A stretch of DNA of 59,518 bases from a virus (lineage: Duplodnaviria; Caudoviricetes): positions 1-59,518 of the IMG/VR virus record IMGVR_UViG_3300025122_000016; one strand, 5' to 3'. A model generated the notes under the pieces. That model made no database searches, was not told where the DNA came from, and saw nothing but the letters and a program-made list of their open reading frames with translations. Made by a program: the position numbers and the translations under genes. Position 1 is the first letter of the stretch, and every line of letters starts with the position of its first letter. Below are positions 1 through 59,518 of this stretch, piece after piece.

Positions 1-145
1 TCCAGCATCGACTAACAGCTTATGTAGTCGGATAACCTCAAGTCTGACTTGCGGATCGGTAATCTGCAATTTTGACTCTGCCGGATGGGAATCAACAGCA
101 TCGTTGGCGCGTTTCAAGATTTTGAGAAGTAACCACGTCGGAACC
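1..145. repeat. Terminal direct repeat, left copy (assembly overlap of a circular/permuted genome)
   Basis: 1-145 equals 59374-59518 except C19 vs T59392; a reading frame continues across the junction. Confidence 0.95.
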
Positions 146-528
146 TTGGTTTCTTTAGCATAATCGTACCATCTGCTACCATCGGCCCAGTAGTGGTCAA
201 CACTTATCTCAAACTTGCCATCGACCTCTTTCCCGACGATCTCACCGTCCCATGACACATTCTTACCAAACGCCTTTTTATTGACGTTCCAGACCACACC
301 GAAGGATGCCTCAACATATTGCACCATGCGAGCGGTGTCTACTCCCTTCGGGCAATCCTTCACAATGTCAGTAAAAAGTGTGGCATTGAAGTGGTTGGCG
401 TAATGCTGGCCAGCAGAGACGAGCAGTTGGTGATACAGATCACGCATCGTTTTAGCTTTTGCGTGGACTGCTTTAATCTGCTTGGGAAGGTCGGCTTCTG
501 CAATGATTGATTTGATTGATGTGCTCAT
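1..528 (-). CDS. First early protein, 185 aa, spanning the circular junction (continues 59373..59344)
   Basis: Manual translation: ATG at 528, MSTSIKSIIAEADLPKQIKAVHAKAK...DAGLPLIEDKAA, TGA at 59346-59344; GAGGA RBS upstream; absent from the ORF track because it crosses the end. Confidence 0.85.
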   Translation of the reverse strand, partial: MSTSIKSIIAEADLPKQIKAVHAKAKTMRDLYHQLLVSAGQHYANHFNATLFTDIVKDCPKGVDTARMVQYVEASFGVVWNVNKKAFGKNVSWDGEIVGKEVDGKFEISVDHYWADGSRWYDYAKETKVPTWLLLKILKRANDAVDSHPAESKLQITDPQVRLEVIRLHKLLVDAG

Positions 529-540
529 AATAAATATTCC

Positions 541-1048
541 TCATGAGATTACGGATCACCGGAATTGGTAATCCCTCAATCAACCTACAGGTTCTGGTGT
601 TTACAACTTTGCAATGTATCCGGCGCCTACCGCCCGAGAAGGGCCGCGCTCAGTGCGCGGTGTCGCGTGGGACGCGATCGCTTACAACCCCATGTCAGCC
701 TATCGGCCTACCGTATCAAGGAATCTGCGGTGTAGCCCGCTTTCACCTACACCATCTTCAAACTACCAGTGGAGTCTGAATCAATCGGTGCAACTCTGGT
801 TCGATCCAATCACCATTACGCCATCTCAAGCGCGTTGGCCTACCACATTATTCACACTTGCCAAGCCCCGATACTCAAGTCACTTTCGATCATATCGCTA
901 CGGGAGTCAGATGCTACGTTGTGGTAGCGGATTATCCGGCGCCCTACCCGCTGTTCTTTAACGTCTGCTCGGCATGCACTAGCAAGACGTACATCCTTGC
1001 GACACCTTATTGTGCCGCTTGTTGGGCCTCGAATTGACAACCCAACAC
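541..1048 (-). ncRNA. Candidate long structured leader/ncRNA
   Basis: About 54% GC by hand count over 601-1020 in an otherwise AT-rich genome; at least 10 hairpins; A.C mismatches on + become G.U pairs on -; no convincing CDS. Confidence 0.55.
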
Positions 1049-1052
1049 CCAC

Positions 1053-1058
1053 ATTATA
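1053..1058 (-). promoter_or_regulatory. Sigma70-type -10 box (TATAAT) of the leftward early promoter
   Basis: Perfect TATAAT on -; predicted start ~1047 coincides with the first hairpin; no clear -35. Confidence 0.5.
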
Positions 1059-1096
1059 CATAATCCGCACAATGTTTTCTTTATTTAAGGTTTTGA

Positions 1097-1109
1097 GATC
1101 AATGGTTTA
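1097..1109 (+). promoter_or_regulatory. IHF-like site
   Basis: GATCAATGGTTTA vs consensus WATCAANNNNTTR (1 mismatch) in the divergent control region. Confidence 0.3.
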
Positions 1110-1227
1110 CAAAAGGAACCCCTAATCCGCAGGCGGGGGTGTCCGACTTTCCGACGCAGCGGTTGCCCACCCCCATACATACATTAAAAAACTCACACGC
1201 ACACACTAAGGGGGCGTTTTATGCAGG

Positions 1228-1263
1228 ATTTTATGTGGCTTTGCTTAAAATTTTACATAAAAT
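1228..1263. promoter_or_regulatory. 9-bp inverted repeat (operator-like) upstream of the rightward promoter
   Basis: ATTTTATGT-N18-ACATAAAAT. Confidence 0.35.
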
Positions 1264-1295
1264 AATCTGAAGTGCGCCAGTTGGTACCCCTAATA

Positions 1296-11900: not shown

Positions 11901-12537
11901 AATTGAAGCATCAAACATAGCAACGGGGGCAGTCCCTTCTACGGGGTTTACCTCTGTACAAGTGTTTACTGCAGCGTCTACATGGACTAGACCTACTGAC
12001 ATTACCAAGGTAATAGTTGAGGTTCAAGGTGCTGGAGGTGGTGGTGGAGGCGGCTCCACATCCAAAGGAGACGGAGGAGGCGGTGGTGGCTATGCTAAAA
12101 AATTCTTGGATGTATCTAATACCACGACAGCAACTGTCACCATAGGAGGCGCTGGTACTGGAGGTGCCTCTACTGCAAATGGAGTTGCTGGTGGATTGTC
12201 AAAGTTTGAGGAAAATGCAGGATCAGGAGGTTGGGCAGATGTAATTGGTAATGGAGGAGCTCTTGGCCAAACAAACAATGCTGGTGGGGGCGCTGGCGGT
12301 ACTGGAACGGGTGGTGACTTTAATATCACGGGCGGTTCAGGCGGTGGTCAGACAAACGAAAATAACACTGGAGGCGGTTCACAATTTTCTTCCATGCACT
12401 ATTCTATTACAGGCAGTGCAAATCCACCAACCGCAACACCCGGTTATGGTGGTGGCGGGGAAGGTAGTCGTGGAACAACTGGCTATAGCGGCGCTGCAGG
12501 AACAGCCGGAATAGTTATCGTTTGGGAGTATAAATAA
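11887..12537 (+). CDS. Glycine-rich fibre-tip protein, paralog 1
   Basis: VFT...TWTRP..ITKVIVEVQGAGGGG...KFLDVS...GIVIVWEY. Confidence 0.8.
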   Translation: MATTKIEASNIATGAVPSTGFTSVQVFTAASTWTRPTDITKVIVEVQGAGGGGGGGSTSKGDGGGGGGYAKKFLDVSNTTTATVTIGGAGTGGASTANGVAGGLSKFEENAGSGGWADVIGNGGALGQTNNAGGGAGGTGTGGDFNITGGSGGGQTNENNTGGGSQFSSMHYSITGSANPPTATPGYGGGGEGSRGTTGYSGAAGTAGIVIVWEYK

Positions 12538-13196
12538 TGGCATTAACTAAAGTAGGTTCTGGAGTTATTCAAGATGATGCCGTTGGTATCGCTAATTTAG
12601 GAGCGACTGGGACCGCATCAGCAACGACATTCCTTCGTGGAGACAATGCGTGGGCTAGTGCTGCGGCAGGACTTAACTCTGCTCAATTTTTTACCTCTAG
12701 TGGAACGTGGACTAAACCAACAGGAATTACTAAAGTAATTATGTATGTTACTGGTGGTGGTGGTGGGAGTAAAACGAGTGCCTCGGCAGACGATACCTCT
12801 GGTGGTGCAGGAGCAACGGCAATTAAATTTTTAGATGTATCCAGCATCTCAACATCGACGATAACAGTGGGCGCGGCTGGAGATGGGCAAAGCACACCAA
12901 CAGCAGGGGGTAATTCTATTTGGTCAGATGGGACCAATACCATCACTGCGAATGGTGGTACGCAAGGAAATGCTACTAATACTCCGGGCGCACAAGTGAC
13001 GGCAACGGGCGGTGATATAAATATTCCCGGATCGCAAGGGACAAATTCTCCACAAGATAACGGGAAACCCTCTTTTTGGGGTGGTGGAACTTATCGGGCG
13101 AATGGAACAATTTATGGAGAGGGTGGCCCCGGCCAATATCAACAAACAGGTTACGACGGTGGGCCGGGAATTGTATTAGTTTGGGAGTATAAATAA
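12537..13196 (+). CDS. Glycine-rich fibre-tip protein, paralog 2
   Basis: MALTKV..., ATTFLRGDNAW linker, FTSSGTWTKP...GIVLVWEY. Confidence 0.8.
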   Translation: MALTKVGSGVIQDDAVGIANLGATGTASATTFLRGDNAWASAAAGLNSAQFFTSSGTWTKPTGITKVIMYVTGGGGGSKTSASADDTSGGAGATAIKFLDVSSISTSTITVGAAGDGQSTPTAGGNSIWSDGTNTITANGGTQGNATNTPGAQVTATGGDINIPGSQGTNSPQDNGKPSFWGGGTYRANGTIYGEGGPGQYQQTGYDGGPGIVLVWEYK

Positions 13197-13642
13197 TGCC
13201 TTATTTAGGATTTGAACCAACATTCGGAGAATACCCGAATCAGATATTTGCAGGAACTGCTACTGGGCCTAATGGATCGAGGACAGACTTCACAATGACA
13301 TACGCTCCATCAAACAGTGCATCGGTTCTGGTGACGCTGGCTGGAGTAAAGCAGATGACCAACGCTTACAGTGTAAATGGCACGACCCTTACGATGACTG
13401 CTGCTCCTGCTGCAGACGACCCATCAGGGACAAACAGTATGGAGCTGGTCTTCTTAGGGCTAAGGGCTGATACAATTCAGCCTGATGAAACTTTAGGCAC
13501 AGACGCAATCATGAGGTATAACGGAAACACAATATCTGAAAACATAACAGTAACGGCTGCACAGAATGCAATGAGCGCAGGACCAATTACCATTGCAGAC
13601 ACTTACATAGTTACTGTCGATGGTAACTGGAGCATCGTATGA
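13196..13642 (+). CDS. Fibre adaptor protein
   Basis: MPYLG start, LVTLAGVKQ...YSVNGTTLT module, C-terminal NAMSAGPITI...VTVDGNWSIV. Confidence 0.7.
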   Translation: MPYLGFEPTFGEYPNQIFAGTATGPNGSRTDFTMTYAPSNSASVLVTLAGVKQMTNAYSVNGTTLTMTAAPAADDPSGTNSMELVFLGLRADTIQPDETLGTDAIMRYNGNTISENITVTAAQNAMSAGPITIADTYIVTVDGNWSIV

Positions 13643-14536: not shown

Positions 14537-15256
14537 ATGGTATCTACAGTAAAAGTTGATGTAGTAGCTCCAAGAGTAGCTACCGGAACAACCACACTAG
14601 GAGTCAGTGGTGATAAGTTGCTTGTGCCTTCTGGTGTCACAATAACAAACTCTGGAACAGCTACTGGGTTTGTTTCTGGATTCACTTCGGTTCAGAAATT
14701 CACAGCGAGTGGAACGTGGACTAAACCTGCTGATATAACTAAGATATTAGTTTTTATTACTGGCGGTGGTGCGGCTGGAACGTATATATCTGGTTCTGAT
14801 GGTCAAGGGGGTGGTGCTGGTGGTACAGCAATAAAATTCCTTGATGTGAGTGCAATTTCTTCTGTGGATGTAACTATTGGATCTGGTGGACTAGATACTG
14901 GTGTAGGTGCATCTCCATCTTTCGGTAATGCGGGTGGAGCGTCTGCTTTCGGTGTTGCTCCTGCTACCGTTCATTGCACGGCTGGTGGGGGTGCAATCGG
15001 TACGACTCAGCAAGTGCCCGGCGTTGGTGGTGTAGGGGCTAGTGGAGATTTAGACATCAAAGGAGGCATGGGGTCTTATGCTGGGTTTGGCAATGGCGGG
15101 TCTAGTTTCTGGGGAGGCGGTACTTCCGAAGGTTACAATGGCGGATATACAAGTCCTGTAGGTGTAGGGGCGTTTGGTTCTGGCGGTGGTGGGGCAAGAG
15201 ATGTGGCTGCTGGCGATGGCGCGGATGGAGTATGTTTTGTGATGGAGTTCAAATAA
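14537..15256 (+). CDS. Glycine-rich fibre-tip protein, paralog 3
   Basis: FTASGTWTKPADITKI...KFLDVS...GVCFVMEF. Confidence 0.8.
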   Translation: MVSTVKVDVVAPRVATGTTTLGVSGDKLLVPSGVTITNSGTATGFVSGFTSVQKFTASGTWTKPADITKILVFITGGGAAGTYISGSDGQGGGAGGTAIKFLDVSAISSVDVTIGSGGLDTGVGASPSFGNAGGASAFGVAPATVHCTAGGGAIGTTQQVPGVGGVGASGDLDIKGGMGSYAGFGNGGSSFWGGGTSEGYNGGYTSPVGVGAFGSGGGGARDVAAGDGADGVCFVMEFK

Positions 15257-16023
15257 TGGCTAGTACAATTAGAACAGACAAGATAGGGCCAGCAGATGGC
15301 TCTGCTGATTTTACTCTCCCAACTGCAGACGGAAGTGCAGGGCAGTTTATAAAAACTGATGGATCAAAAGCCCTCAGTTTCGCTACAGTTACTGAAACTG
15401 GATTTCTTGGTGTGGTAGTTTACACAGCAACAGGCACTTACACTCCGGGTAATACTACAAATGGAACTGCTGGTGATGAAGGCAGTGCAACTGTTTCTAA
15501 GATTATTGTAGAGGTATTGTCTGCAGGGGGAGGCTCTGGTTCATGTGGAGCGGCGGGTACTTCTGGTGGTGCTGGCGGTGCAGGCTCGTATGCGTTGAAG
15601 GTTTTGGATATAGGAACTGATAGAGCTGTTATAACTACATGTACTCCAACTGTTGGTGCGGCAGGAGCCGCTGCAAGTTATGCCGGTTCTGAAGCGGGTG
15701 CTACTGGAGGCGCGTCTTCATTTGCAAAGGCCACTGGAAGCGGGTCATTTACAACTGTTGCAACTTTTGGTGGAGTGGGTGGCACATATAACACTTATAC
15801 TCCCGGCGCTGGTGGAGCAGCGCCAACTACTGGCGATATAAATTTAGCAGGATGCGGGGGGTATAACGTGAATTCAGGTGGTGATTCTCAATATGGTTGG
15901 GGCGGTAGACCAGACCCAAACCCCGGGACAGGTTATGGTACTGGTTCAGCAAGTGGTTCTGGGACTAATACAAATGGTATACCCGGCAAGGATGGAATTA
16001 TAGTGATTTGGGAGTATGCATAA
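15256..16023 (+). CDS. Glycine-rich fibre-tip protein, paralog 4
   Basis: MASTIRTDKI..., TLPTADGSAGQFIKTDGS linker, ...GIIVIWEY; TAATG-coupled start at 15256. Confidence 0.8.
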   Translation: MASTIRTDKIGPADGSADFTLPTADGSAGQFIKTDGSKALSFATVTETGFLGVVVYTATGTYTPGNTTNGTAGDEGSATVSKIIVEVLSAGGGSGSCGAAGTSGGAGGAGSYALKVLDIGTDRAVITTCTPTVGAAGAAASYAGSEAGATGGASSFAKATGSGSFTTVATFGGVGGTYNTYTPGAGGAAPTTGDINLAGCGGYNVNSGGDSQYGWGGRPDPNPGTGYGTGSASGSGTNTNGIPGKDGIIVIWEYA

Positions 16024-16073
16024 TGAGCTACGGGCTTAACACAGAAGAAGTTAAAGACGAATTTGGACTATAG
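16023..16073 (+). pseudogene. C-terminal remnant of a third chaperone gene
   Basis: MSYGLNTEEVKDEFGL* matches the end of 14258..14533 (GLTTEEVKEAFGI), including DNA GAAGAAGTTAAAGA. Confidence 0.65.
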
Positions 16074-32937: not shown

Positions 32938-35900
32938 ATGGCTGACAATCAAGAGCAAAAAATTTATCTATTTGATTACCCTGCTGTAACTAGGTGGGAT
33001 ACTCCAGTTGATCAATTGAATCAAGCATTGGATACTACAAATGTAAGTTCAGAAGAAAGAAGTCTTGCAGAAGCTTTCCATGGAGGTTACAAGAACCTTC
33101 AACATCTTGCAGCTTCATACATGATGAAAACAGGGAAGCAACTTCTTGACCCTGAAGGGTTTGAGCATGAGGGTATAGGTCGGTGGCTGTTTGAGACTGG
33201 CGAAGATTGGTATACAGAAGTAGGCGCTGACATTGCAGATGACAAACACAGGCCGCGATGGAAAGATGTTGAGGGCGTAGGAGAAACTAGCTCATGGTTT
33301 GCTGATGCTATAGCAGAACAAATACCATTGATGGCTCCCGGCGTGATTGGTGGTGGTCTTGTTGGTATTGCTGCAGCTGCCGCTGGTTGGCCTGTGCTTG
33401 CTGTAACAGGCGCTGTATGGGGGACTGTAGGCTTAACAAGTTACTTGCTGAATACTGGGGATGCTTACTCAAAGCAACTACAGAAGGGCGGAAAAATAGA
33501 TGAACATGTTGCTGACGTTGCTGGTGTTGTAGCTGCTGCTTTTGATGTTATCATACCCGGCGTTATAACTGGTAAGGTTGTAAAAGCTTTAGGTCCTAAG
33601 CTATCTAAGAATTTACGTGATGGATTGCAGAAAAATGTAGCTAAAAATTTAAGGCTAAATACTGCTGTAGGTACTAGGATAAAAAGAGGTATAACGTATG
33701 CTCTTGTTGAGGGATCTACAGAGTATCTGCAAGAAGGGTTGCTAGAGGCCAGTGTAAATTATGTAAATGATCTGCCTCCTTTTGATTATAGCCCAGAACA
33801 AAAAGAGATAATGACAGAGGCATTCTGGGTTGGATGGGGTGCCGGTGGTGCTTTTGGGGTGACTACCCCTACTGGTAGCAGGGCTCAGAGAAAAGCCCTT
33901 GAGGCTGAATCTGCGGCTGCTGATGCTGAAGTAGCAGCTAGTGAAGCTAAAGCTGCTGCAGATGAGGCTGTATTATCTGAGGCGGTTGATGAGTCTACTG
34001 CATTAGAGGCCATTGAAGAGGTGGCTGCTGAAGCTCCGCCGAGAAGTATGAGACGGAGAGGAACACTACCTACCACTGCACCACCTCCAGCTACTCCAGA
34101 ATTTGATACTGGGCTAGCTGGTATAGGGCCATTTGGAGACCCATTAGCTACTCCATATACTAGACCGGGGGATAGGGCTCCCCTTGATGCTGAGGAAGCA
34201 ACACTAGAAACTGGAGATCCTTATGCTCCAACAAGGATGGACAGAGTTAGATCTAGGAGAGCAGCTAGGAGAGCGGAAAGAAGCGAGGTTGATGATACCC
34301 TTGCTAGATTAGAGAGGGGTGTGGAGGCTGATGGCGGCATTCCTGTAATCACAGGACCAGCTGCTGAAACTGTTACTGCATCTGACGCTGGGTTGCTTGA
34401 CATAGGCGAACCAATACGCCCAATAAGGAAGAAGTTTGAAACAGCAGGTGAAACTGGTAGGGTACTAGGAAGGCGCAGAAGAGAGGCTAAAATAGAAGCC
34501 GAAGCTGCTGCTAGAGCTGAGCAAGAAAGATTAGACGCAATAGAAGCTGAGCGTATACTGAGAGAGAAAAGAGAAGCAGCTGACATAGAGGCTGAATCTG
34601 TTGCTTTAGCAGAGTCAAGTAATAGACAGATCCAAGATGCTGTTAATATGGCTAATACATTAATGGATCTAGTCCTAGCTAGAGGGTGGGACGAAGCTAG
34701 GACTATAAGATTTACTTCTCAAAAAGCTGGTGACATTTCTGCAAGCAATGGACAAGCTGCGGCTGATGCATTTAATGCTGTTATTTCACAAAGAATGGCA
34801 AGGGAGGCGGAGGCTAAAGCTGCTGAATCAGCGCCTACAGCTCCCAAAGCTCGCAGCCCAAAAGAAGAAGCTGAATTAGCTGCTACTATAGCAGAGCTGC
34901 AGGAAAGATTCGGTACGATATTTGAAGAAAGACCAGCCATTACACAGTTAGCTGTTTCAGCTACTCCTGAACCCGCTAAACCAAAGAAGAGACCTACAAC
35001 AAAAAGAACACCACCAGCTGTTGCACCCCCTAAAGAATCCGTTGTATGGTCTGATGATAGGGGTGTATTAACTGCTAATGTTGGTGTTGGTACGCCTGCA
35101 GAGGCAGAAGTAATAGTAAAAGAGGTTGATGGAGAGTGGGTTGCATGGGTTGGAGATGCAGAGGTAACTACTGATGGCATGCCAGAATCCGATCAAAAAG
35201 TATTTAAATCCTCAGAAGATGCAAAAAGATTTGTAATAAGACAGTATGGCTCTGAAGCTGAAGCAGCAGCCATACCAAAAGGAAGACCAAAAACGAAGGC
35301 GGCAACTGCTGGAGCTACCCCATCAGCTCCCTCATCAGCTCCGGCTCCGGCAGCTGCCCCTTCACCCTCACCAGCAAAGACTCCTACACCAAAAATAAAG
35401 AAGCCCGCTATTGGTCCTAACATGACCAAGAAGGAGTTTGATTATTATAGTACTCAAGAGGCTGGCGTTCTTTCTCAGAAGAGAATAAACTACATAGCCG
35501 CTAAAAGAGTTAGGGGAACTGAGTTAAATAAGTGGGAGAGCGGTGCTATTCTGTGGGATAATCAGGCAGAAAGAGTTGCTAGAGCAGAGGGTAGAATCCG
35601 TAAGGCAACGGAGAAGCCTGCTGAGAAGCCAGCGGCTGCCAGAAAACCTTTAAGGGTTCTTCCGTATTCCAAAGTAACAACTAATGAAGAAGGGATACCG
35701 CTCCAGATAGAAAAAAATGATGAAGGTACATTCAACTTACTTCTTGGTGTAGAAGATCAAAATGTAATTGGAGTGTACAAATCTAGATCAACTGCTAAAA
35801 ACGTAGCTGATGGCCTTACATCATCTGATGTAGGTAAGAGATTGGCAGCTCCTTTAAAGCTCGAGGCAAGAACTTTAAGAAGAGATTATTCTGATTGGAA

Positions 35901-38900
35901 GAAGCGAGCTGTTGCACTAAGAGGTATGGGTGAACAGAAAAGGGAACAGGCGGAGCGTGATGCAGAAACTTATAGAATATATAAAGGACCGTTACCAGTA
36001 CCTCGTAAGGTTGGTGAAAGATTTACTGAAGTAGCGGTTGGAGTAAAGGAACTACCTGACGGAAGGTATGAAGTAGTAGCGCATTATCATAAGAGAAGGG
36101 GTGTAGCTGTAAAGGGGTCTGTTACAGGAAAGAGAGCGGCAATACCTTTAGCTCTTTTTCATGCAGATACTAGGGCAGGTGCAGAGGCTATAAGAGATTC
36201 CATAATCACAAACCAACAAGAATTCTATGATCTTGTTAGGATGCACCATGAGGTAGGTAATAGATTTATAGAGATGGGGCGTGGTGATAATAGAGTTTTA
36301 TTCCATATGGATGAAGATGCCTTCTTGGAGAATTGGCTATCCAGAGTAAGCCCATCAGAGCGAGTAGAAATTGAAAATGCATTTACCTCACCTGATGTAC
36401 CTGTTGCGATTGATATCGAAGAAGCGACTGCAGAAGAGGCTGCTATGGCTGAGAAAGCTAAAGCTATTGCCTCAGCTAATAAAGCTAAAGCAGATCAGAG
36501 GGTATTAGATAGGGAAGCAACAGAAAAAGCTCTAGCAAAAGAGGAAAGAGATGCACGTATAGAAGCAGAGAACGCTAAAAAAAAAGTAGATGATGCGTTA
36601 GAAGCTGAAGAAGATATAGTTACAGTTGAGGGAGAGTTAGTTGATAAGCCAGTAGGTATTGTTACAGATTCTGACGCAAGAAGAGATGTAGCTGACTTTT
36701 TTGAACAAGTAGTGCTTGATCAAAGCTATCTCACCGATCAAGACTTTGAAAGAATTGGAGAGATTTATAGAGAGAACCCAATGATAGAGTTGGGTGATAG
36801 ACAGATTACTGCTCAGGAGTATATTCTTGAGCAGTATGAAGAGTCCGGCTTTAGTGATCAAATGATTGCGGAGCGTTTAGAGGTAGCCATACCTGATATA
36901 GATTCTGCGGCTACTCCTCCAATCATTCAATATCTAGAGGAATCCCCTCTTGATGGTATAGAATCTATATCTGCGAAGCTTGATTTAGCGCAACCTGAAC
37001 TTACAGTATCTCATGTCGGAGCAACCGATATCGAAGGAAGGACTGATGACGCTCTAAGATCTTTAGAGATGCAAGGCGATCTTAATAAGAGGCTTGGAAG
37101 AGGCTCACATTATAATCTCTCGCTACCATTTACAGAAACTAAGATTGATATTATTGAAGGCAATGACTTCTTAGAAGGTGCAGGGCATGGCGCTGATATA
37201 GTTGTTCTTCATAGGATTCCTGATGAGGCAACTGCCAGATCTTTAGATAGAGTAGCAGCTGAGATAGGGTACGAAGGAGGGATTTCAGAAGGGCATACTC
37301 TTGATAATTGGAAACAGGCTATATCTGATAGTGGCGCAGATCTTGTTTACATCTTTGGGTCTGGTTCTGCTGGAGACTTCAACGGCCTTGACTTTCAGAG
37401 AGTTCCCGGATATGAGATGGTTGGCGATTGGAACCAAGAAGGGGATATGGAGGCTGGCCAATATGCAGTGCTTAAGAAACTTAGAGAGCACCCTTGGAAG
37501 GATAGGGATCTAGACCCAGCATGGTTACTTGATAGTCCTGTAGAAGAGGAGCAGACAGCTGAGCAGCAAACTCAGGAGATGATTGAGAAGGAGCAAGCTA
37601 CTGCAGAAAGAGAAGCTGCAGAAGCTGCAGAAGAGGCTGCTATAGAGCAAGAGATTGCTGATGCAGAGCAAGATTTGATCATAGGGCAAGAGCCTACTCT
37701 TGATTCCGATGAGTTAGCAATAACTGATTGGGATGCTACAAAAGAAATAGAAGCAGAGATAAGAAACGAGAGAAGACTAGCTCAGAAAAAGACTGACGCT
37801 AATAGAGTTGAGCCTTCTTATGTTTTAGGTATGACTCCAGAAGAAATAAAAAGATCTCTAAAGAGACGACCATCCGAAGGCGGCTATTCTGCCGTAGAAA
37901 TAAATACATTATTACAAAATATAGTTTCATGGGGTGATGAAATATCTACCATTCGTGGTGGAGAAGAAGTCCTCATTGATCCGTCTATAACCCAAAAAGC
38001 TACACGTAAAGCAAAGACAGAAGCAATACTTGATTGGCATAAGCTTGCTAATGATTATGTTATTCTGCGGGATTCTGATCAGGATGCATTCGATGTACCA
38101 GAGATGGAGATAGATGAAGCTCCAGAGTTTATGGTTGAGAAGACTGATGATGGTATGTTTCTTAAAAAGGATGAAGGGGCTTTAGTACACAATGTAGTAA
38201 AGAATAATACTGAGGTAAAATCTAGATTCAGAAAGGCTATGCACCGGATCTGGGGCATAACAGCCACGAAAAGGATGGAGAAGATTGGCTTTATAAAGTA
38301 TGTAACTTTCGATGAAGCAAAGGAACTTATACCATCTTTCTTAGATCGCGAAGGATTAAGAACAAAGATAACAGATAGATACTTAGCCTATTCAGCGCCT
38401 ACTGGAGGTATAATATTTATAACAGATAACCTTCGCAAATACTCTCCATTAGATACTGAATCTGTAAGAGGGATTGTATTTCATGAGTTAGGCGTTCATT
38501 TTGGTAAGGGGATATTCTCCAATAGAGAGCTTGCTAGTATACTAGATCTAACAAAAGATATGTGGCGTATGGGAAATCCTGAAATCAATGAAGCTTACGA
38601 TAAGGTTGTCAGATCTTACTTACCTAAAGAAGCCTTTACCGCTCAGGGGTTGCTCAATAAGAGGGGTGTTGGCTGGTTTAGAGGCTATCAGGAGTGGGGG
38701 AAAGTAGGCGAGGAAGCAGCACTTGTCGGAGAGGGGGCCGCTGTGTTTTGGGAGGAGGTTCTTGCTCATTTTGTTGAGAATAGTTCTCCAGATATTAATC
38801 CAACTTTATGGCAGAAAATACAAACATCTTTTAAATTGTTTATGCGTAGGTTGCTATCTACTTGGACCGATCAGGATGTCATTGATAACTTTACCACAAA

Positions 38901-41900
38901 TGATTTAAAGAATACTATTTCTTATGCATTGCGTCATGTCCCTGATATGGCTCTGGCGCGGTATGGTGACACTAGAGCTATTGAAAGATTAAGGAATAAG
39001 AAGAGGGCTGATTTCTTAGAAGAGTCTGTAGTAAAAAGACCATTGTATCATTACACTACAGCTGACTTTCACTACCCTGTATATGAGTTTACAGAGTTAG
39101 GAATGCATCTAGGCACTATGGATGCAGCCATTAGGATAGGCTTAAAGGGTAATGAACATCAGACAATGGATAACTACGGTGCATTAAGAGGTCAGCCGGG
39201 TATTGATTTTATAGATGACCCCTACGATAGCAGTCTGTATAATAGGAATTTAAAAAATGTTGTTCTTAATTGGGGTAGGCCCTTTCCGGTACAGAGAGCT
39301 GGAAAAAGAACTCCTGTATCTCTAAACAATAAATCCTTGATAGTTCTTGATCCGAGAACTGAAGAGTATTATTATGTTTCCAAAGGAAGGAATTTTATCA
39401 TACCAGTTGCCGGTAATGAGGAAGAGATATCTACAAGACAGAAAATAGAGATGTCCTCAAGAGAAGCAAATCGGTTGACAACAGATGCTAATACTGCAGA
39501 GTTTATATCGGAAAAGCTAGGCAGTGCTGAAGGAAGGGGTATTGAGTGGGCTCAGTTTGAAGATAAATACGTTATCTTTCCTCAAGGTGGTTCTATAAAG
39601 GAAGGGTATGCAAGCATAAAAAATCCATTAAGGATACCGATTGATCTATACGCATGGCATATGCCATCCTCATGGGGAAGGTTTATTGATCTTGAGTCAT
39701 TAACCGATCAATCTGTTATTGATGCTTTAGGATCGGAGTGGTCTCAAGCTAATCGATATACTGGTCCTTCTCCTATAGCTGCTCAGATGAGTAAAGAGAA
39801 ATATGAGGAGTGGAATGACTTTATAGTAAGAAATCTAAAGCATCAAGCATTTTTAAATTCTGAGATAGCCAAGGCTAATCAGAAAGTTTGGGACAATCAG
39901 GCAGAGGAGCAAAGGGGAGAAGTAGAGGGCATTGATCATGAATTAGTAGATAAGAGAGATAGTCTAGAGGAAGACAAAGAGATTCACTTCAAAGAATTTA
40001 GTAGGTATATACGGGATCTTCTAACTGATTTTGGATTCGACTCCATAGAGTATATCAACTACCACGAGCATGAACTTAGTAGATCATATATAGTCTTTAA
40101 TGATGGCCAATTCAAAACAACAGACTCTTTGGCGTGGAGGCCAGAGAATTTAGGCATGGGATTCAAGAAGGTTCTTGATGAAACAGTTGCTGATGAAGTT
40201 AAAAAGACTATGCCTCTGGCTGTTGAGTCAACAAAGCAATTAGGTAAAGGTATTGTTGGTAATGCTAGAGCGGATGGATTCTTAACTAAGATGCAGAAAT
40301 TGGTAGAACCATTGGCTACTGTTCCCGGGTGGGAAGAGCTTGAGGTTGGCAGGATGCTTGCAAAAGGCGAGTCTACAATTGCAGTTAACCAAGCTAGAGT
40401 AATATTTGATATTCTTAATCAGGCTAATAGAAAAGAAAAGAAGGCTATCTTTGAGTACTTCACTACAAGAGGTGCCTCTCCAGATAGCCTACCAACAAGA
40501 ACGGTTGATTACGCAGGGGTAGAGTCAGTACTTGGGGGAAGGAGAACTAGTGGGATAGGGGTTGATCCAGATAATATTCATAATGTAAGCATAAAAGATA
40601 AGGTAATTGAAGTAAAGAAATCCATAGAGGGGTATGGAGAAGAACTAGTAGACAGGGGATTGATAAGTCAAGATCAGTATTCAGAGCTGAAAGGCAAGTA
40701 TTTACCACAGCTGTATCTTAAATATCTAGTAGATGACAGCATGCGTAGGTCTTTAGGTACGGGACTAAAGGCATCTACTTTGGATTATACAAAGGCTAGA
40801 AAGGTTCACGATGAGTGGATTGCTCAAATTCTTTTTGGCAAGATTGATGATCCAGCATTCTTGGCGTCAAGATATGTTGGTCAGGTTGGGAGAGACATAT
40901 CGATTATAAAGTACTTGCAATTTATAGCTTCTGACCCCGGCAATAACAAGTGGGTAATACCACAACAGCTTGTAAGTTACAGGGGCATCAATGGAACAGC
41001 AGACTTTTTCCTTAATGAGTCAGCTGGCCTAAGCCATAGGGCAGATATAACAGAGAAGACTGATCCAGAAAGAGCTAAAGAGATGCGTACTATTTCATCT
41101 GAAATGAATAGAGCTGCTAATAGTGTGCAAGATTTTAGCGTGTACAATCAAAAGATGTATAAGCGTATGCCTTCTCATCCAAGGTATGGTGCTATGCGAG
41201 GTCTGTTAGTGCGAAAAGAAATATATGATGACCTTGTTGGATTGTCGACATCCGGCGAGATGTCGTTACCTCAAAGCTTTCTAAGTGATAGAGGCTGGGG
41301 CACCAAGATAACTCAAGTGTTTAAATATACTAGAGTGCCAATGAATATACCAACACAGGCTCGCAACTTTGTGTCTAACATGATACTGTTACATACATCT
41401 GGAGCTGGCGGGGTGCTTGGTTTGGGTATTCCTAGACTGATAACAAAGTCAATGAGTGATATTGTTAATAATGGCAAGTATATGCAGATAGCTAGGAAGT
41501 ATGGAATTGAAGGAACCACATTTGCTACTGAAGAGTTAGCAAGGATAGACAGGGAGTTACTTGCAGTAAAGGCAAGCGGGGATACGTTTGAAGGAGCCAA
41601 AGCCAGAGCCGCTATATTTTTTGATAACTGGATCGACATAGCAGGAAGAGCATACCAGAAATCAGAAGTGCTTTTTAAGGTAGCAAAAATAATGGATGGA
41701 ATGGAGAAGGGGCTTAAGGAATCTGATGCTGTACGGGCGGCAAACAATGCTATCATAGACTACAGCCAAGTATCCCAAGGCATAAGGTATTTGCGTAGAG
41801 TCCCATTCGGTTCTCCATTTATAACATTTAATGCTAAGGTCCTACCTCAGTTGTTGAGAAACCTTAAGAGTAATCCATTGCATTTCTTGCCTTATGTTGC

Positions 41901-42684
41901 GCTGCCCTATATAATAAAGGAAGCTTTAATTGCACAGCATGAGGATTTAGATGACGAGGATGTTAATATTCTAAAGAGGTTGTTGCCTGAGTGGGCTAGA
42001 GAAAGGGCTGGAATATATTTCCTACCATTTAAAGATGAGAACAATAGATGGACCGCGCTTGATCTAGGGTACATGTTACCATGGACGGCGCATTTTGAAC
42101 TGTCTAAGAACTTAGGTAAGGGAGAGTTCGGTAAAGCTTTTGGCAATACAGGTATGTTTACTGGGCCAATGGACCTTGTTGTTGGATTGAAGACAAACCA
42201 AGATCCATTCTTAAATAAAGAGATATGGAATGATTCTGATCCAGCGGCGCAACAGTACCAAGATATCCTAGGCTTTATAACAAGTTATATAGTTCCTCCA
42301 TTCATGTCCCCAAGGAATCAATCAGGAGATACAATAACTGGCGGCGGTCCAATCATAAAGTTAATGATGGCCTCTGGATATATGGATGGTAATATAGATT
42401 CTGATGGGCTACCTAGGTATACTGTACCACGGTCGTGGGCTTCCATGTTTGGGTTTAATACATATAATGTAAATGAACTTTCCGCCGCAAGAAATGTTCA
42501 GTGGATGGAGAGGGAGGCTCTTAGGATAGAGAAGCGGTTAAACAATTTATTACTTAATCCTAATCTATCCATGGAAAAAAGACAGAAGCTTTATACAGCG
42601 TATGTTGAGCATCTAGCAGATAAGGTTAGGAAGACTTACGAGTACTATGATAGCGTGAAGGGCTATGAAAAAATGTTCCAATAA
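32938..42684 (+). CDS. Giant polyvalent DNA-ejection protein, 3248 aa (metallopeptidase + ADP-ribosyltransferase + C-terminal translocation region)
   Basis: FHELGVH...EEVLAH; PLYH.T...GMHLGT...SIKNPL...GFDSIEY.N.HE..SYIVF..GQFK; C-terminal helical region (IDYSQV, PFITF, NQDPF...IW). Confidence 0.8.
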   Translation: MADNQEQKIYLFDYPAVTRWDTPVDQLNQALDTTNVSSEERSLAEAFHGGYKNLQHLAASYMMKTGKQLLDPEGFEHEGIGRWLFETGEDWYTEVGADIADDKHRPRWKDVEGVGETSSWFADAIAEQIPLMAPGVIGGGLVGIAAAAAGWPVLAVTGAVWGTVGLTSYLLNTGDAYSKQLQKGGKIDEHVADVAGVVAAAFDVIIPGVITGKVVKALGPKLSKNLRDGLQKNVAKNLRLNTAVGTRIKRGITYALVEGSTEYLQEGLLEASVNYVNDLPPFDYSPEQKEIMTEAFWVGWGAGGAFGVTTPTGSRAQRKALEAESAAADAEVAASEAKAAADEAVLSEAVDESTALEAIEEVAAEAPPRSMRRRGTLPTTAPPPATPEFDTGLAGIGPFGDPLATPYTRPGDRAPLDAEEATLETGDPYAPTRMDRVRSRRAARRAERSEVDDTLARLERGVEADGGIPVITGPAAETVTASDAGLLDIGEPIRPIRKKFETAGETGRVLGRRRREAKIEAEAAARAEQERLDAIEAERILREKREAADIEAESVALAESSNRQIQDAVNMANTLMDLVLARGWDEARTIRFTSQKAGDISASNGQAAADAFNAVISQRMAREAEAKAAESAPTAPKARSPKEEAELAATIAELQERFGTIFEERPAITQLAVSATPEPAKPKKRPTTKRTPPAVAPPKESVVWSDDRGVLTANVGVGTPAEAEVIVKEVDGEWVAWVGDAEVTTDGMPESDQKVFKSSEDAKRFVIRQYGSEAEAAAIPKGRPKTKAATAGATPSAPSSAPAPAAAPSPSPAKTPTPKIKKPAIGPNMTKKEFDYYSTQEAGVLSQKRINYIAAKRVRGTELNKWESGAILWDNQAERVARAEGRIRKATEKPAEKPAAARKPLRVLPYSKVTTNEEGIPLQIEKNDEGTFNLLLGVEDQNVIGVYKSRSTAKNVADGLTSSDVGKRLAAPLKLEARTLRRDYSDWKKRAVALRGMGEQKREQAERDAETYRIYKGPLPVPRKVGERFTEVAVGVKELPDGRYEVVAHYHKRRGVAVKGSVTGKRAAIPLALFHADTRAGAEAIRDSIITNQQEFYDLVRMHHEVGNRFIEMGRGDNRVLFHMDEDAFLENWLSRVSPSERVEIENAFTSPDVPVAIDIEEATAEEAAMAEKAKAIASANKAKADQRVLDREATEKALAKEERDARIEAENAKKKVDDALEAEEDIVTVEGELVDKPVGIVTDSDARRDVADFFEQVVLDQSYLTDQDFERIGEIYRENPMIELGDRQITAQEYILEQYEESGFSDQMIAERLEVAIPDIDSAATPPIIQYLEESPLDGIESISAKLDLAQPELTVSHVGATDIEGRTDDALRSLEMQGDLNKRLGRGSHYNLSLPFTETKIDIIEGNDFLEGAGHGADIVVLHRIPDEATARSLDRVAAEIGYEGGISEGHTLDNWKQAISDSGADLVYIFGSGSAGDFNGLDFQRVPGYEMVGDWNQEGDMEAGQYAVLKKLREHPWKDRDLDPAWLLDSPVEEEQTAEQQTQEMIEKEQATAEREAAEAAEEAAIEQEIADAEQDLIIGQEPTLDSDELAITDWDATKEIEAEIRNERRLAQKKTDANRVEPSYVLGMTPEEIKRSLKRRPSEGGYSAVEINTLLQNIVSWGDEISTIRGGEEVLIDPSITQKATRKAKTEAILDWHKLANDYVILRDSDQDAFDVPEMEIDEAPEFMVEKTDDGMFLKKDEGALVHNVVKNNTEVKSRFRKAMHRIWGITATKRMEKIGFIKYVTFDEAKELIPSFLDREGLRTKITDRYLAYSAPTGGIIFITDNLRKYSPLDTESVRGIVFHELGVHFGKGIFSNRELASILDLTKDMWRMGNPEINEAYDKVVRSYLPKEAFTAQGLLNKRGVGWFRGYQEWGKVGEEAALVGEGAAVFWEEVLAHFVENSSPDINPTLWQKIQTSFKLFMRRLLSTWTDQDVIDNFTTNDLKNTISYALRHVPDMALARYGDTRAIERLRNKKRADFLEESVVKRPLYHYTTADFHYPVYEFTELGMHLGTMDAAIRIGLKGNEHQTMDNYGALRGQPGIDFIDDPYDSSLYNRNLKNVVLNWGRPFPVQRAGKRTPVSLNNKSLIVLDPRTEEYYYVSKGRNFIIPVAGNEEEISTRQKIEMSSREANRLTTDANTAEFISEKLGSAEGRGIEWAQFEDKYVIFPQGGSIKEGYASIKNPLRIPIDLYAWHMPSSWGRFIDLESLTDQSVIDALGSEWSQANRYTGPSPIAAQMSKEKYEEWNDFIVRNLKHQAFLNSEIAKANQKVWDNQAEEQRGEVEGIDHELVDKRDSLEEDKEIHFKEFSRYIRDLLTDFGFDSIEYINYHEHELSRSYIVFNDGQFKTTDSLAWRPENLGMGFKKVLDETVADEVKKTMPLAVESTKQLGKGIVGNARADGFLTKMQKLVEPLATVPGWEELEVGRMLAKGESTIAVNQARVIFDILNQANRKEKKAIFEYFTTRGASPDSLPTRTVDYAGVESVLGGRRTSGIGVDPDNIHNVSIKDKVIEVKKSIEGYGEELVDRGLISQDQYSELKGKYLPQLYLKYLVDDSMRRSLGTGLKASTLDYTKARKVHDEWIAQILFGKIDDPAFLASRYVGQVGRDISIIKYLQFIASDPGNNKWVIPQQLVSYRGINGTADFFLNESAGLSHRADITEKTDPERAKEMRTISSEMNRAANSVQDFSVYNQKMYKRMPSHPRYGAMRGLLVRKEIYDDLVGLSTSGEMSLPQSFLSDRGWGTKITQVFKYTRVPMNIPTQARNFVSNMILLHTSGAGGVLGLGIPRLITKSMSDIVNNGKYMQIARKYGIEGTTFATEELARIDRELLAVKASGDTFEGAKARAAIFFDNWIDIAGRAYQKSEVLFKVAKIMDGMEKGLKESDAVRAANNAIIDYSQVSQGIRYLRRVPFGSPFITFNAKVLPQLLRNLKSNPLHFLPYVALPYIIKEALIAQHEDLDDEDVNILKRLLPEWARERAGIYFLPFKDENNRWTALDLGYMLPWTAHFELSKNLGKGEFGKAFGNTGMFTGPMDLVVGLKTNQDPFLNKEIWNDSDPAAQQYQDILGFITSYIVPPFMSPRNQSGDTITGGGPIIKLMMASGYMDGNIDSDGLPRYTVPRSWASMFGFNTYNVNELSAARNVQWMEREALRIEKRLNNLLLNPNLSMEKRQKLYTAYVEHLADKVRKTYEYYDSVKGYEKMFQ

Positions 42685-55670: not shown

Positions 55671-56702
55671 TTATCCAAGTAAAACATCTGAATTTTCAAT
55701 AGCCCACATACTGAAAGCCTTAGTATCCTCTAACTCCTTAGTCTTTTTCCACGCTTGCATGACACATAAGGTGGTAAACTCAGGGTCAAGTCTCGACATA
55801 TATTTAATGACATTATCAAAGTTCTTTTGATCAGCATACTGAGCGAGACTGCATGCGATAGCGTACTTAGCACTAGGATTTTCTGGAATTCTAGTTTTAT
55901 CAGGTGACTTGATACAATCTAATGGGTCAGGAACATCAACAGCTACATCTTCATGCGATGCAAATGCAACAGCGGCCCCCTCTCCGACAAGTGAGGCGTA
56001 TAAATTAAACCTCATTGATTTAGATGGGTCTTTCTTTCTAACACCACTCACTCTTTCCCACGCTCTAGGGTTAGGGTAAGCCCATTCAGCCGCACCCGTT
56101 TCAGGCATCTTAAATGCCATATCAGGATGGAACTTTAGAAAAGAAATCACAATAGGGTCGACCCCGTTCCGTATAAAGTGAGGAAGAAGCCCGTCCTTTG
56201 CCTGTGTGTCAGCACCTAACTCCATAATCGCCTCGATATGTGCATACCTAGTCTTCTGCGGCACAGAAAGACCACGATTTATACCGCCATGTTCTTTCCT
56301 ATTGCCTAATGCAATGATCTGCCACCCATCAGGTAACCTGTAGTCTCCCACTCTACGCTCTAGAACAAGAGACTGCGTAGATGCGTTCACCTCTTGAGTT
56401 CCATCAAGTATCTCTTCCAAGCAAAGAACCCCATACTTACCATCACGATCCTCATAAGGGAGAAAGTCAGGCGATGCCCACCTAGAGATACCGCCATCCA
56501 AGTAAGGTATACCCTTGATATCACTAGGGTCCATTTGTGAGGTGCGTAGTTCCATATACCCACCAACATCGTTATGTGCGTACAAATCTGTCACCTGAGT
56601 CTTACCTATACCGGAGTGACCAGTAACTAATACTGGTATACCCTGCCCTCGGTAGTATCGGTAATAAGTAGGCAACTCATGCACTGGTACTTGTATTGTC
56701 AT
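55671..56702 (-). CDS. MoxR-like AAA+ ATPase
   Basis: GHSGIGKT, D..DIKGIP, LCLEEI, ALGNR, NPRAWE. Confidence 0.88.
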   Translation of the reverse strand: MTIQVPVHELPTYYRYYRGQGIPVLVTGHSGIGKTQVTDLYAHNDVGGYMELRTSQMDPSDIKGIPYLDGGISRWASPDFLPYEDRDGKYGVLCLEEILDGTQEVNASTQSLVLERRVGDYRLPDGWQIIALGNRKEHGGINRGLSVPQKTRYAHIEAIMELGADTQAKDGLLPHFIRNGVDPIVISFLKFHPDMAFKMPETGAAEWAYPNPRAWERVSGVRKKDPSKSMRFNLYASLVGEGAAVAFASHEDVAVDVPDPLDCIKSPDKTRIPENPSAKYAIACSLAQYADQKNFDNVIKYMSRLDPEFTTLCVMQAWKKTKELEDTKAFSMWAIENSDVLLG

Positions 56703-58975: not shown

Positions 58976-59287
58976 TTACTTGAAACTACCGTGCAAACCT
59001 CTACTAGACGGTCTGCTACCCTTCCTATTACCACGTACACGTACAGGCTGAGGCAATAAGTCAGATTTGCGCTGAAACACACGAGCATCCGCACGTTCAC
59101 GCTTTCCGTCAGAATTACAGGCCAAAACAACCAGCAATTCAAGGGATTTTGGGGACGCATTTGCCCAGTGCGGTGTACCCTGACGTGTGCGACCGCTAGA
59201 GTCCGTCCAACGATCACACTTCAAACCGTCAGTCATAGGACGATCGCGCTCAGCAATACTCCGATTCAACATATCTATAAAGTCCAC
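58976..59287 (-). CDS. Hypothetical early protein
   Basis: GGAG RBS just downstream of the 59300-59346 hairpin. Confidence 0.55.
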   Translation of the reverse strand: MDFIDMLNRSIAERDRPMTDGLKCDRWTDSSGRTRQGTPHWANASPKSLELLVVLACNSDGKRERADARVFQRKSDLLPQPVRVRGNRKGSRPSSRGLHGSFK

Positions 59288-59299
59288 ATTACGCTCCGC

Positions 59300-59346
59300 A
59301 GGTTGATTGAGGGATCACACTCTTTCGAGTGTGACCCGTACAATCA
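59300..59346 (-). promoter_or_regulatory. Long hairpin between early genes 1 and 2 (RNase III/processing-site-like)
   Basis: UGAUUG-UAC-GGGUCACACUC-GAAA-GAGUGUGAUCC-CU-CAAUCA on -; no U-tract. Confidence 0.65.
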
Positions 59347-59373
59347 TGCAGCTTTGTCTTCGATCAAAGGCAG

Positions 59374-59518
59374 TCCAGCATCGACTAACAGTTTATGTAG
59401 TCGGATAACCTCAAGTCTGACTTGCGGATCGGTAATCTGCAATTTTGACTCTGCCGGATGGGAATCAACAGCATCGTTGGCGCGTTTCAAGATTTTGAGA
59501 AGTAACCACGTCGGAACC
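59374..59518. repeat. Terminal direct repeat, right copy
   Basis: Matches 1-145 with one mismatch. Confidence 0.95.

Follow-up and report, generated by a model that had tools for sequence, protein, structure and literature searches.

The two flanks of a 185-codon gene at the head of the early operon of a marine phage, here called gene X, are complementary to each other, and on the early transcript they can close into a long helix, the clamp, with the whole cistron in its loop. The window analysed is a stretch of 59,518 nt, positions 1 to 59,518 of the virus record IMGVR_UViG_3300025122_000016 (Duplodnaviria; Caudoviricetes). Covariation supports the clamp in 14 lineages of a marine phage family that is abundant and uncultured, and comparison of their arms shows that selection maintains its structure on the gene's strand across the whole family. 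A conserved RNA structure on the sense strand, taken alone, is highly probable. By analogy with known transcripts we favour the fuller statement that the clamp is a conserved processing site of the RNase III type, function included, and we hold it tentatively, at slightly below an even chance. Such a clamp represents a concrete, mutable RNA device for early-gene control, and it makes gene X worth examining for its function. RNA structures whose halves lie on either side of an ORF are missed by standard motif discovery. Here the structure is split by a 560-nt ORF, which makes the clamp invisible to motif searches, and it went unnoticed until the contig was circularised.

The clamp and its setting in the window phage

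The two ends of the contig overlap by 145 nt (1–145 = 59374–59518, with a single mismatch, 19 C/59392 T), and the contig therefore closes into a circle of 59373 nt. Read across the circle junction, gene X is a minus-strand ORF of 185 aa (528..1 joined to 59373..59344), with codons 1–176 in 1..528 and the last 9 codons and the stop in 59344..59373. As the initial annotation had stated for the pairing, both gene X and the complementarity around it emerge across this junction once the contig is closed. A GAGGA Shine-Dalgarno sequence, read from the sequence, lies at 538..542 (minus strand), ahead of the start codon at 528–526. Gene 2 of the early operon (58976..59287, minus strand; 103 aa) has a GUG start with GGAG 6 nt upstream. 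The long non-coding stretch at 589..1270 (minus strand), about 680 nt, presumably forms the 5′ leader of the early RNA. It should be mentioned that the mismatch in the terminal overlap falls inside gene X; the contig of a strain that is 99.5% identical (L021) has the T allele at this position, which indicates that the assembly merges two strains.

Gene X stands at the head of the minus-strand operon and is thus the first gene of the early or replication arm. It is followed by small ORFs and then by genes for an ATPase, primase/helicase, RusA, NinB, Erf and SSB, with dUTPase and ribonucleotide reductase among the further genes. The plus-strand operon begins at ~1272 and encodes peptide deformylase, the small terminase subunit TerS (2191–2646), the large terminase and the portal protein. 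The window sequence was found in marine, seawater and hydrothermal-vent metagenome runs of 16 studies. No match to cultured phages was returned by blastn and tblastn with window sequences, and gene X alone and gene 2 alone, used as queries against viral contigs, found no loci. A sigma-70-type promoter was found neither in 589–1270 nor within 450 nt upstream of the element, and neither a sigma-70 promoter nor a terminator was found at or near the clamp arms. Searched against Rfam, the whole window had 0 matches at the gathering threshold and the part 500–1400 had 0 at E ≤ 1, and a search for tRNAs found none.

Some observations concern the rest of the genome. The large terminase has 20–26% identity to its nearest matches in cultured phages, N4-like Pseudomonas phages (about 22%) included, and the nearest relatives of the primase/helicase (31–35%) are found in phages of Flavobacteriia. 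A 3248-aa ORF at 32938–42684 on the plus strand has no match in Pfam or PHROG. This ORF shares a perfect G+C-rich stretch of 25 nt (38720–38744 = 55969–55993) with the gene for the ATPase, which lies on the opposite strand; the stretch is in sense orientation in both genes and encodes LVGEGAA, and apart from it the two genes are unrelated. A 32-nt repeat ending in ATG is present in four copies (12508–12539, 13167–13198, 15227–15258 and 15994–16025), which sit at the starts of paralogous, glycine-rich genes next to one another.

No Pfam family was matched by protein X, which belongs to phrog_1448 (E 4e-15), a group without assigned function; neither Pfam nor PHROG gave a match to a recombinase or transposase. 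Among 1.84 billion representative proteins, 14 relatives were found at E ≤ 1e-3. Two homologs, P0001 and P0002, are 98% and 80% identical. The AlphaFold model is confident and has a helical/beta fold with a mean pLDDT of 87.4. A fold search of the model against the PDB gave no match with E below 1, and one against BFVD gave 14 matches at E ≤ 1e-3, to uncharacterised proteins of cultured phages. No function was suggested by Pfam, the PDB fold search or the ESM Atlas. In an alignment of the protein family (A2), H42, H46 and W80 are nearly invariant and most members end in K-x-A, K-A-A or V-A at the C-terminus.

The core of the clamp is a 16-nt stretch, 571–586, that is the exact reverse complement of 59300–59315, as had been reported from the sequence at the outset, and this pair is unique in the window. 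At up to two mismatches the 16-mer occurs at these two sites only, with a chance expectation of 0.03, and two or more matches were obtained in none of 100 shuffles. The inverted pair extends to 19 nt (568–586/59300–59318) and, with G·U pairs, to the 23 bp of helix A. The 5′ strand of helix A is the upstream arm, 568..590 on the minus strand, in which the exact core (571–586) is continued by 3 inner and 4 outer pairs including a U·G. Its 3′ strand is the downstream arm, 59296..59318 on the minus strand, which covers part of the GGAG and ends 9 nt before the start of gene 2. In helix B, GUGAUCCGUA (550..559, minus strand, read 559→550) pairs with UACGGGUCAC (59331..59340, minus strand, read 59340→59331) over 10 bp, with one U·G on the minus-strand RNA. 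Stem C joins UCAUG (541..546, minus strand), adjoining the Shine-Dalgarno sequence of gene X, to CAUGA (59344..59348, minus strand), which holds the UGA stop codon of the gene. Helix B and stem C had both been named in the initial annotation and both are present. The position of the duplex next to two ribosome-binding sites is likewise confirmed, since it adjoins the GAGGA of gene X (538–542) and the GGAG of gene 2 (start 59287); in the window, helix A pairs with the GCGG of the GCGGAG Shine-Dalgarno region of gene 2.

Each flank can also fold into a local hairpin with the same stem, so that there are two competing, mutually exclusive pairing schemes. The upstream hairpin (553..575, minus strand) has its 5′ strand in common with helix A and its 3′ strand in common with helix B. 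The downstream hairpin (59311..59337, minus strand) is closed by a GAAA loop, and its 3′ strand is the inner part of helix A. Judged by base complementarity, the four helices could coexist in the window phage as a four-way junction with no unpaired nucleotides at the junction; this arrangement is not the predicted minimum free energy (MFE) structure. The stem word GTGATCC occurs 9 times in the window, with 5.0 expected, and is not enriched; the hairpin is therefore not a dispersed repeat.

Cofolding of the two flanks, a check suggested in the initial annotation, gave −66.0 kcal/mol on the minus strand, compared with −57.2 kcal/mol on the plus strand. The local hairpins alone yield −17.9 and −27.7 kcal/mol. 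The duplex energy of −64.4 kcal/mol in the window is to be compared with a mean of −21.8 (sd 6.7) for 3210 equally spaced flank pairs in the genome and a mean of −27.4 (sd 4.5, minimum −46.8) for 500 shuffles. The best unrelated pair in the genome scan had −55.0 kcal/mol. It lies at ~35299–35990 on the minus strand, within the 3248-aa ORF and antisense to it, and is probably a coding repeat.

Conservation and covariation among marine relatives

The arms in strain L021 are identical to those of the window and thus uninformative for covariation. More distant relatives were reached in two ways. An alignment of distant gene X homologs led to 9 viral loci, all syntenic with the window, in which TerS is 56–69% identical and gene X only 24–30%; exact flanking inverted repeats of 15–17 nt are present in all nine. 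A search with TerS gave 76 loci, 27 of them with a gene X homolog, which is divergent from TerS in every case (27/27). Across the related loci TerS identity is 56–78%, and gene X is 24–30% identical to the window protein. The complementarity, whose absence from relatives that keep the gene had been named as evidence against the pairing, is there throughout: a flanking inverted repeat with an exact seed of at least 10 nt was found in 37/37 loci carrying gene X, about 50 nt upstream of the start and 25–30 nt downstream of the stop. These 37 loci correspond to 29 distinct contigs (8 were fetched twice) and to 14 lineages with different arm sequences. No relative without gene X was found among the loci with enough upstream sequence. 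An exact scan of viral contigs with the 16-mer itself gave 18 loci with one copy each, none resembling the window, and these matches are therefore attributed to chance.

The architecture is the same in all 14 lineages. Each flank has its local hairpin, with the same stem sequence upstream and downstream of the gene. The 5′ extension of the upstream hairpin complements only the 3′ extension of the downstream hairpin, and together with the shared stem this makes up helix A, which spans 20–29 bp in 14/14 lineages. In helix B, the 3′ strand of the upstream hairpin, together with a few further nucleotides, is paired with the downstream hairpin's 5′ strand. A gene-2 start was found in 10 of 14 lineages, where it lies 9–18 nt past helix A. 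Long-range pairing is more stable than the two hairpins by 10.9–25.5 kcal/mol in every lineage. In MFE predictions for the complete RNA of ~700 nt, the long-range helix is fully kept in 10/14 lineages and is kept partly or not at all in the other 4.

The whole element was aligned with MAFFT (alignment A6), and covariation was evaluated in 12 lineages out of 14. In the remaining two, L035 and L036, the upstream arm was misaligned and treated as gaps, and direct extension gave helices of 29 and 21 bp, respectively. The shuffle counts given here are not probabilities, since it was from these sequences, themselves related, that the structure was read. In helix A, 85.4% of the alignment cells are paired compared with 66.2% after shuffling (0/500 shuffles as high), and the covariation score is 0.450 compared with 0.174. 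When the partners were slid by 1–3 columns, 36–51% of the cells were paired. Compensatory changes on both sides, looked for at the suggestion of the initial annotation, occur in 20/23 pairs of helix A. The inner half of this helix is also hairpin sequence, and the hairpins could account for part of its covariation. The outer extension (columns 40–49) belongs to no hairpin, and there 8–12 of the 12 sequences are paired at each column with several pair types; columns 43/899, for instance, hold GC 5 times, UA 5 times and CG twice, with zero unpaired cells. The support from covariation is weaker for helix B, where it may be called modest: 66.9% of cells are paired compared with 58.2% in the shuffles (0/500 as high), with a score of 0.374 (0.240 shuffled). 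For both local hairpins together, 86.5% of cells are paired compared with 72.1% (0/500 as high), with a score of 0.475 (0.235 shuffled); the upstream hairpin contributes 90.7% paired cells and the downstream one 84.5%. The long-range duplex and the one hairpin per flank, proposed in the initial annotation as alternating folds, thus both covary among the lineages.

The strand of the structure is suggested by its non-Watson-Crick pairs and its loops. On the gene's strand G·U outnumbers A·C by about 5:1, with counts of 15:3 in helix A, 9:2 in the outer extension, 17:8 in helix B, and 10:2 and 25:6 in the two local hairpins. The loop of the downstream hairpin is a GNRA tetraloop (GAAA, GCAA or GCGA) in 10/14 lineages, on the sense strand only. 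The cofold is more stable on the sense than on the antisense strand in 11/14 lineages, and in 13/14 with tighter windows. The G·U bias, the GNRA loops and the sense-strand stability together speak for a structure in the RNA of the early transcript.

A contig from RNA library X20, about 95% identical, differs by three changes in the upstream hairpin (L021 positions 52, 55 and 70); one turns U·G into U-A, another turns A-U into G·U, and the hairpin is kept. This contig covers the upstream arm but not its partner downstream arm. The contigs assembled from the library are 90–95% like the leader and gene X, and they are no guide to transcription or RNA ends.

Proposed RNase III-type processing and alternative roles

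Bacterial 16S and 23S rRNA are bracketed by RNase III processing stems in the rRNA operons, and the early RNA of phage T7 is cut by RNase III between cistrons. We propose that the flanks of gene X pair on the early minus-strand transcript through helix A (~22 bp), which helix B (7–10 bp) would extend inward, with the 185-codon cistron sitting in the loop. The local hairpins could be the first to fold, while transcription is still under way. With the 3′ arm synthesised, the outer extensions, which are single-stranded at this stage, could seed the long-range helix, the more stable of the two forms. An endonuclease of the RNase III type, specific for double strands, would then cut at the clamp. 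Cleavage there would free cistron 1 both from the long, structured leader and from the early genes downstream, and it would make the 5′ end of gene 2 and so set the accessibility of its ribosome-binding site. A cut of this type is favoured as the simplest mechanism with a precedent, that of the rRNA operon. The idealised E. coli RNase III substrate is described as 22 bp or two helical turns (PMC3867540). The 20–29 bp of helix A in the 14 lineages are in keeping with the about 20–22 bp of an RNase III substrate. Circularisation of the mRNA, which the initial annotation had considered, is supported by none of our results.

The strongest competing view, possible but doubtful, is that the same conserved RNA structure serves without cleavage, as a conformational switch or timer. 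In one version, toehold strand exchange would take place after transcription of the cistron, and the long helix would occlude the standby region or the Shine-Dalgarno sequence of gene 2 and partly that of gene X. In another, ribosomes terminating on gene X would melt helix B and stem C and so couple genes 1 and 2 in translation. In favour of a switch are the two pairing schemes, mutually exclusive and both under selection, and the outer extensions, which are single-stranded in the hairpin state; the long-range form is the more stable by 10.9–25.5 kcal/mol. The hok mRNA provides a precedent, having a 5′–3′ fold-back (tac/fbi) and a metastable 5′ hairpin (PMC9841398). Near gene 2, the helix ends 9–18 nt before the start codon (10/14 lineages) and pairs the GCGG of GCGGAG in the window; in several lineages, however, the Shine-Dalgarno sequence lies a few nucleotides outside the helix. 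Near gene X, the stop codon is inside stem C; clear conservation is lacking, however, both for stem C and for a helix adjoining the Shine-Dalgarno sequence. Nor would a switch need a helix held at about two turns, and no trigger for one has been identified.

A more specific possibility, which we consider rather unlikely, is that the clamp acts as a branch-migratable RNA four-way junction, an RNA analogue of the Holliday junction, that brackets the cistron and takes the completed transcription of gene 1 as its timer. The same-stem hairpins would fold co-transcriptionally, the emerging 3′ extension would trigger toehold exchange into the two-turn helix, and the exchange would trigger processing or translational gating of the remaining early operon. 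If true, such a timer junction would constitute a previously undescribed class of cis-acting phage RNA regulator.

It is also conceivable, and in our estimate improbable, that the two same-stem hairpins are sites for one protein, either protein X in autoregulation or a host factor, and that the long-range complementarity follows largely from the presence of one hairpin in two copies. The hairpins indeed share their stem within each lineage, upstream and downstream, and the stem core is conserved, as GGAUUG/CAAUCC, GGAUUAC/GUAAUCC and GAAUCAC/GUGAUUC types. The outer extension (columns 40–49), however, lies outside both hairpins and yet covaries strongly. Complementarity from arm to arm is usually perfect Watson-Crick over 10–17 nt, whereas the downstream hairpin has G·U pairs and mismatches. 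Nor does protein X have a recognisable nucleic-acid-binding family or fold (Pfam; PDB at E below 1).

Very improbable, in our view, is an inverted repeat acting at the DNA level, as an invertible segment, the ends of a mobile cassette or a cruciform, with the arms homogenised by recombination. Elements of this kind are classically recognised by inverted repeats flanking a gene, and concerted evolution of the arms would mimic covariation. The locus is nevertheless syntenic in all relatives, with gene X and TerS divergent in 27/27 loci holding both, and this synteny and fixed orientation argue against a mobile or invertible DNA element. Duplex DNA would not predict an excess of G·U over A·C of about 5:1 or GNRA loops on the gene's strand, and protein X matches no recombinase or transposase family. 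Inversion of the enclosed segment, raised in the initial annotation, is not borne out: the orientation is the same in all 27 loci, and the three contigs that bridge the arms are colinear with no strand-change joint, a weak test that uses contigs only. None of the 8 downstream early ORFs scanned matches a recombinase family, and the TerS gene has a faint match to a DNA invertase at the HTH level (E 5.7e-4). An invertible segment of the Gin/Hin type was rejected on the single orientation (27/27) and the absence of a recombinase family match, and a mobile cassette with terminal repeats (IS- or MITE-like) on the syntenic position and the match of protein X to a PHROG of unknown function only.

Two further candidates were discarded: an intrinsic terminator or attenuator, for which a G+C-rich hairpin with a U tract was looked for and neither a U run after the downstream hairpin (14/14 lineages) nor a terminator-like site at the arms was found, and an N4-like hairpin promoter, the 3248-aa ORF having no RNA polymerase family match and the loops having at least 4 nt, with GNRA on the sense strand.

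Comparison with known systems and the leader upstream

As a long-range helix the clamp resembles a processing stem or a fold-back, and it departs from the known examples in enclosing a whole phage cistron and in competing with two same-stem hairpins. To our knowledge, no other long-range helix is known around a phage protein-coding cistron, and a non-exhaustive search of the literature found no description of such an element. Like the RNase III sites of T7 (R0.3, R0.5 and others), the clamp is intergenic and lies at the start of a phage early operon. The known T7 sites are local hairpins, not cistron-spanning helices, in contrast to the clamp helix, which spans about 560 nt. In phage MS2, the long-range Min Jou interaction, which translation upstream opens, controls access to the ribosome-binding site of the following gene. 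The clamp, if it were a switch, would resemble it in placing a long-range pairing at the ribosome-binding site of the next gene. However, the Min Jou partner lies inside the upstream coding region, whereas both clamp arms are intergenic and bracket the gene.

For the favoured processing reading, the stems at which RNase III processes pre-rRNA (a processing noted in PMC3867540) offer a close parallel. As in these stems, distant 5′ and 3′ flanks pair into a helix of about two turns around a whole unit in a longer transcript; the clamp differs in that it encloses a phage protein-coding cistron, its arms have competing hairpins and its cleavage is one that we infer here. The hok mRNA is closed around its ORF by 5′–3′ pairing (tac/fbi) with a competing 5′ hairpin, as the clamp is; its local 5′ hairpin forms first in transcription, and its fold-back has support from covariation too (PMC9841398). 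The hok mRNA encodes a small type I toxin and is controlled by 3′ trimming and an antisense RNA (PMC9841398), unlike the clamp, which surrounds a gene of 185 aa within an operon and has no known antisense partner. Gene X, with 185 aa and as the first gene of the operon, does not correspond to the small membrane toxin ORF of hok. The flanks of the HCV IRES anneal into a double-helical switch that is cleaved by RNase III in vitro (PMC2760801). The likeness lies in immediate flanks that anneal, lock a unit and alternate with an open form; the difference is that HCV is a eukaryotic RNA virus with an IRES as the enclosed unit and a microRNA as the trigger (PMC2760801).

A distant homolog of gene X (P0015) matches 234 cultured phage records. 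Among the matches listed, the homologs lie 1–2.8 kb from the left end, in the early region, and all are annotated as hypothetical. The four cultured records opened, RSB1, phi Xc10, phi-2 and ISAO8, are Autographiviridae. In these 4 of the 234 records the flanks do not pair significantly over long range (z +0.7 to −2.4), and a hairpin follows the gene X homolog in each. The absence of the pairing from the four sampled Autographiviridae suggests that the clamp does not come with the gene family. Provisionally, with 4 of 234 records sampled, it seems to be specific to the marine family.

Upstream of the clamp, 0.5–0.9 kb from gene X, a leader block of ~100 nt (window 1092–1212, minus strand; columns ~376–500 of alignment A7) is conserved in sequence in about 10/14 lineages. 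It comprises, in order, a T-rich run, TATGTATGGGG, and the pair GGACUCC...GGAGUACC. One helix was predicted in it, with 0/8 pairs covarying, and the block has no Rfam match. It could be the early promoter, the transcript start or a protein-binding site. Between this block and the clamp, 45–60 nt upstream of the latter, is a small hairpin at 632–644 (minus strand), found at matching positions in L026, L028, L030 and L047. It reads CCC-GAAA-GGG in several lineages and GCCC-UUCUC-GGGC in the window, and these changes on both sides between lineages give a hint of a structured leader RNA on the sense strand.
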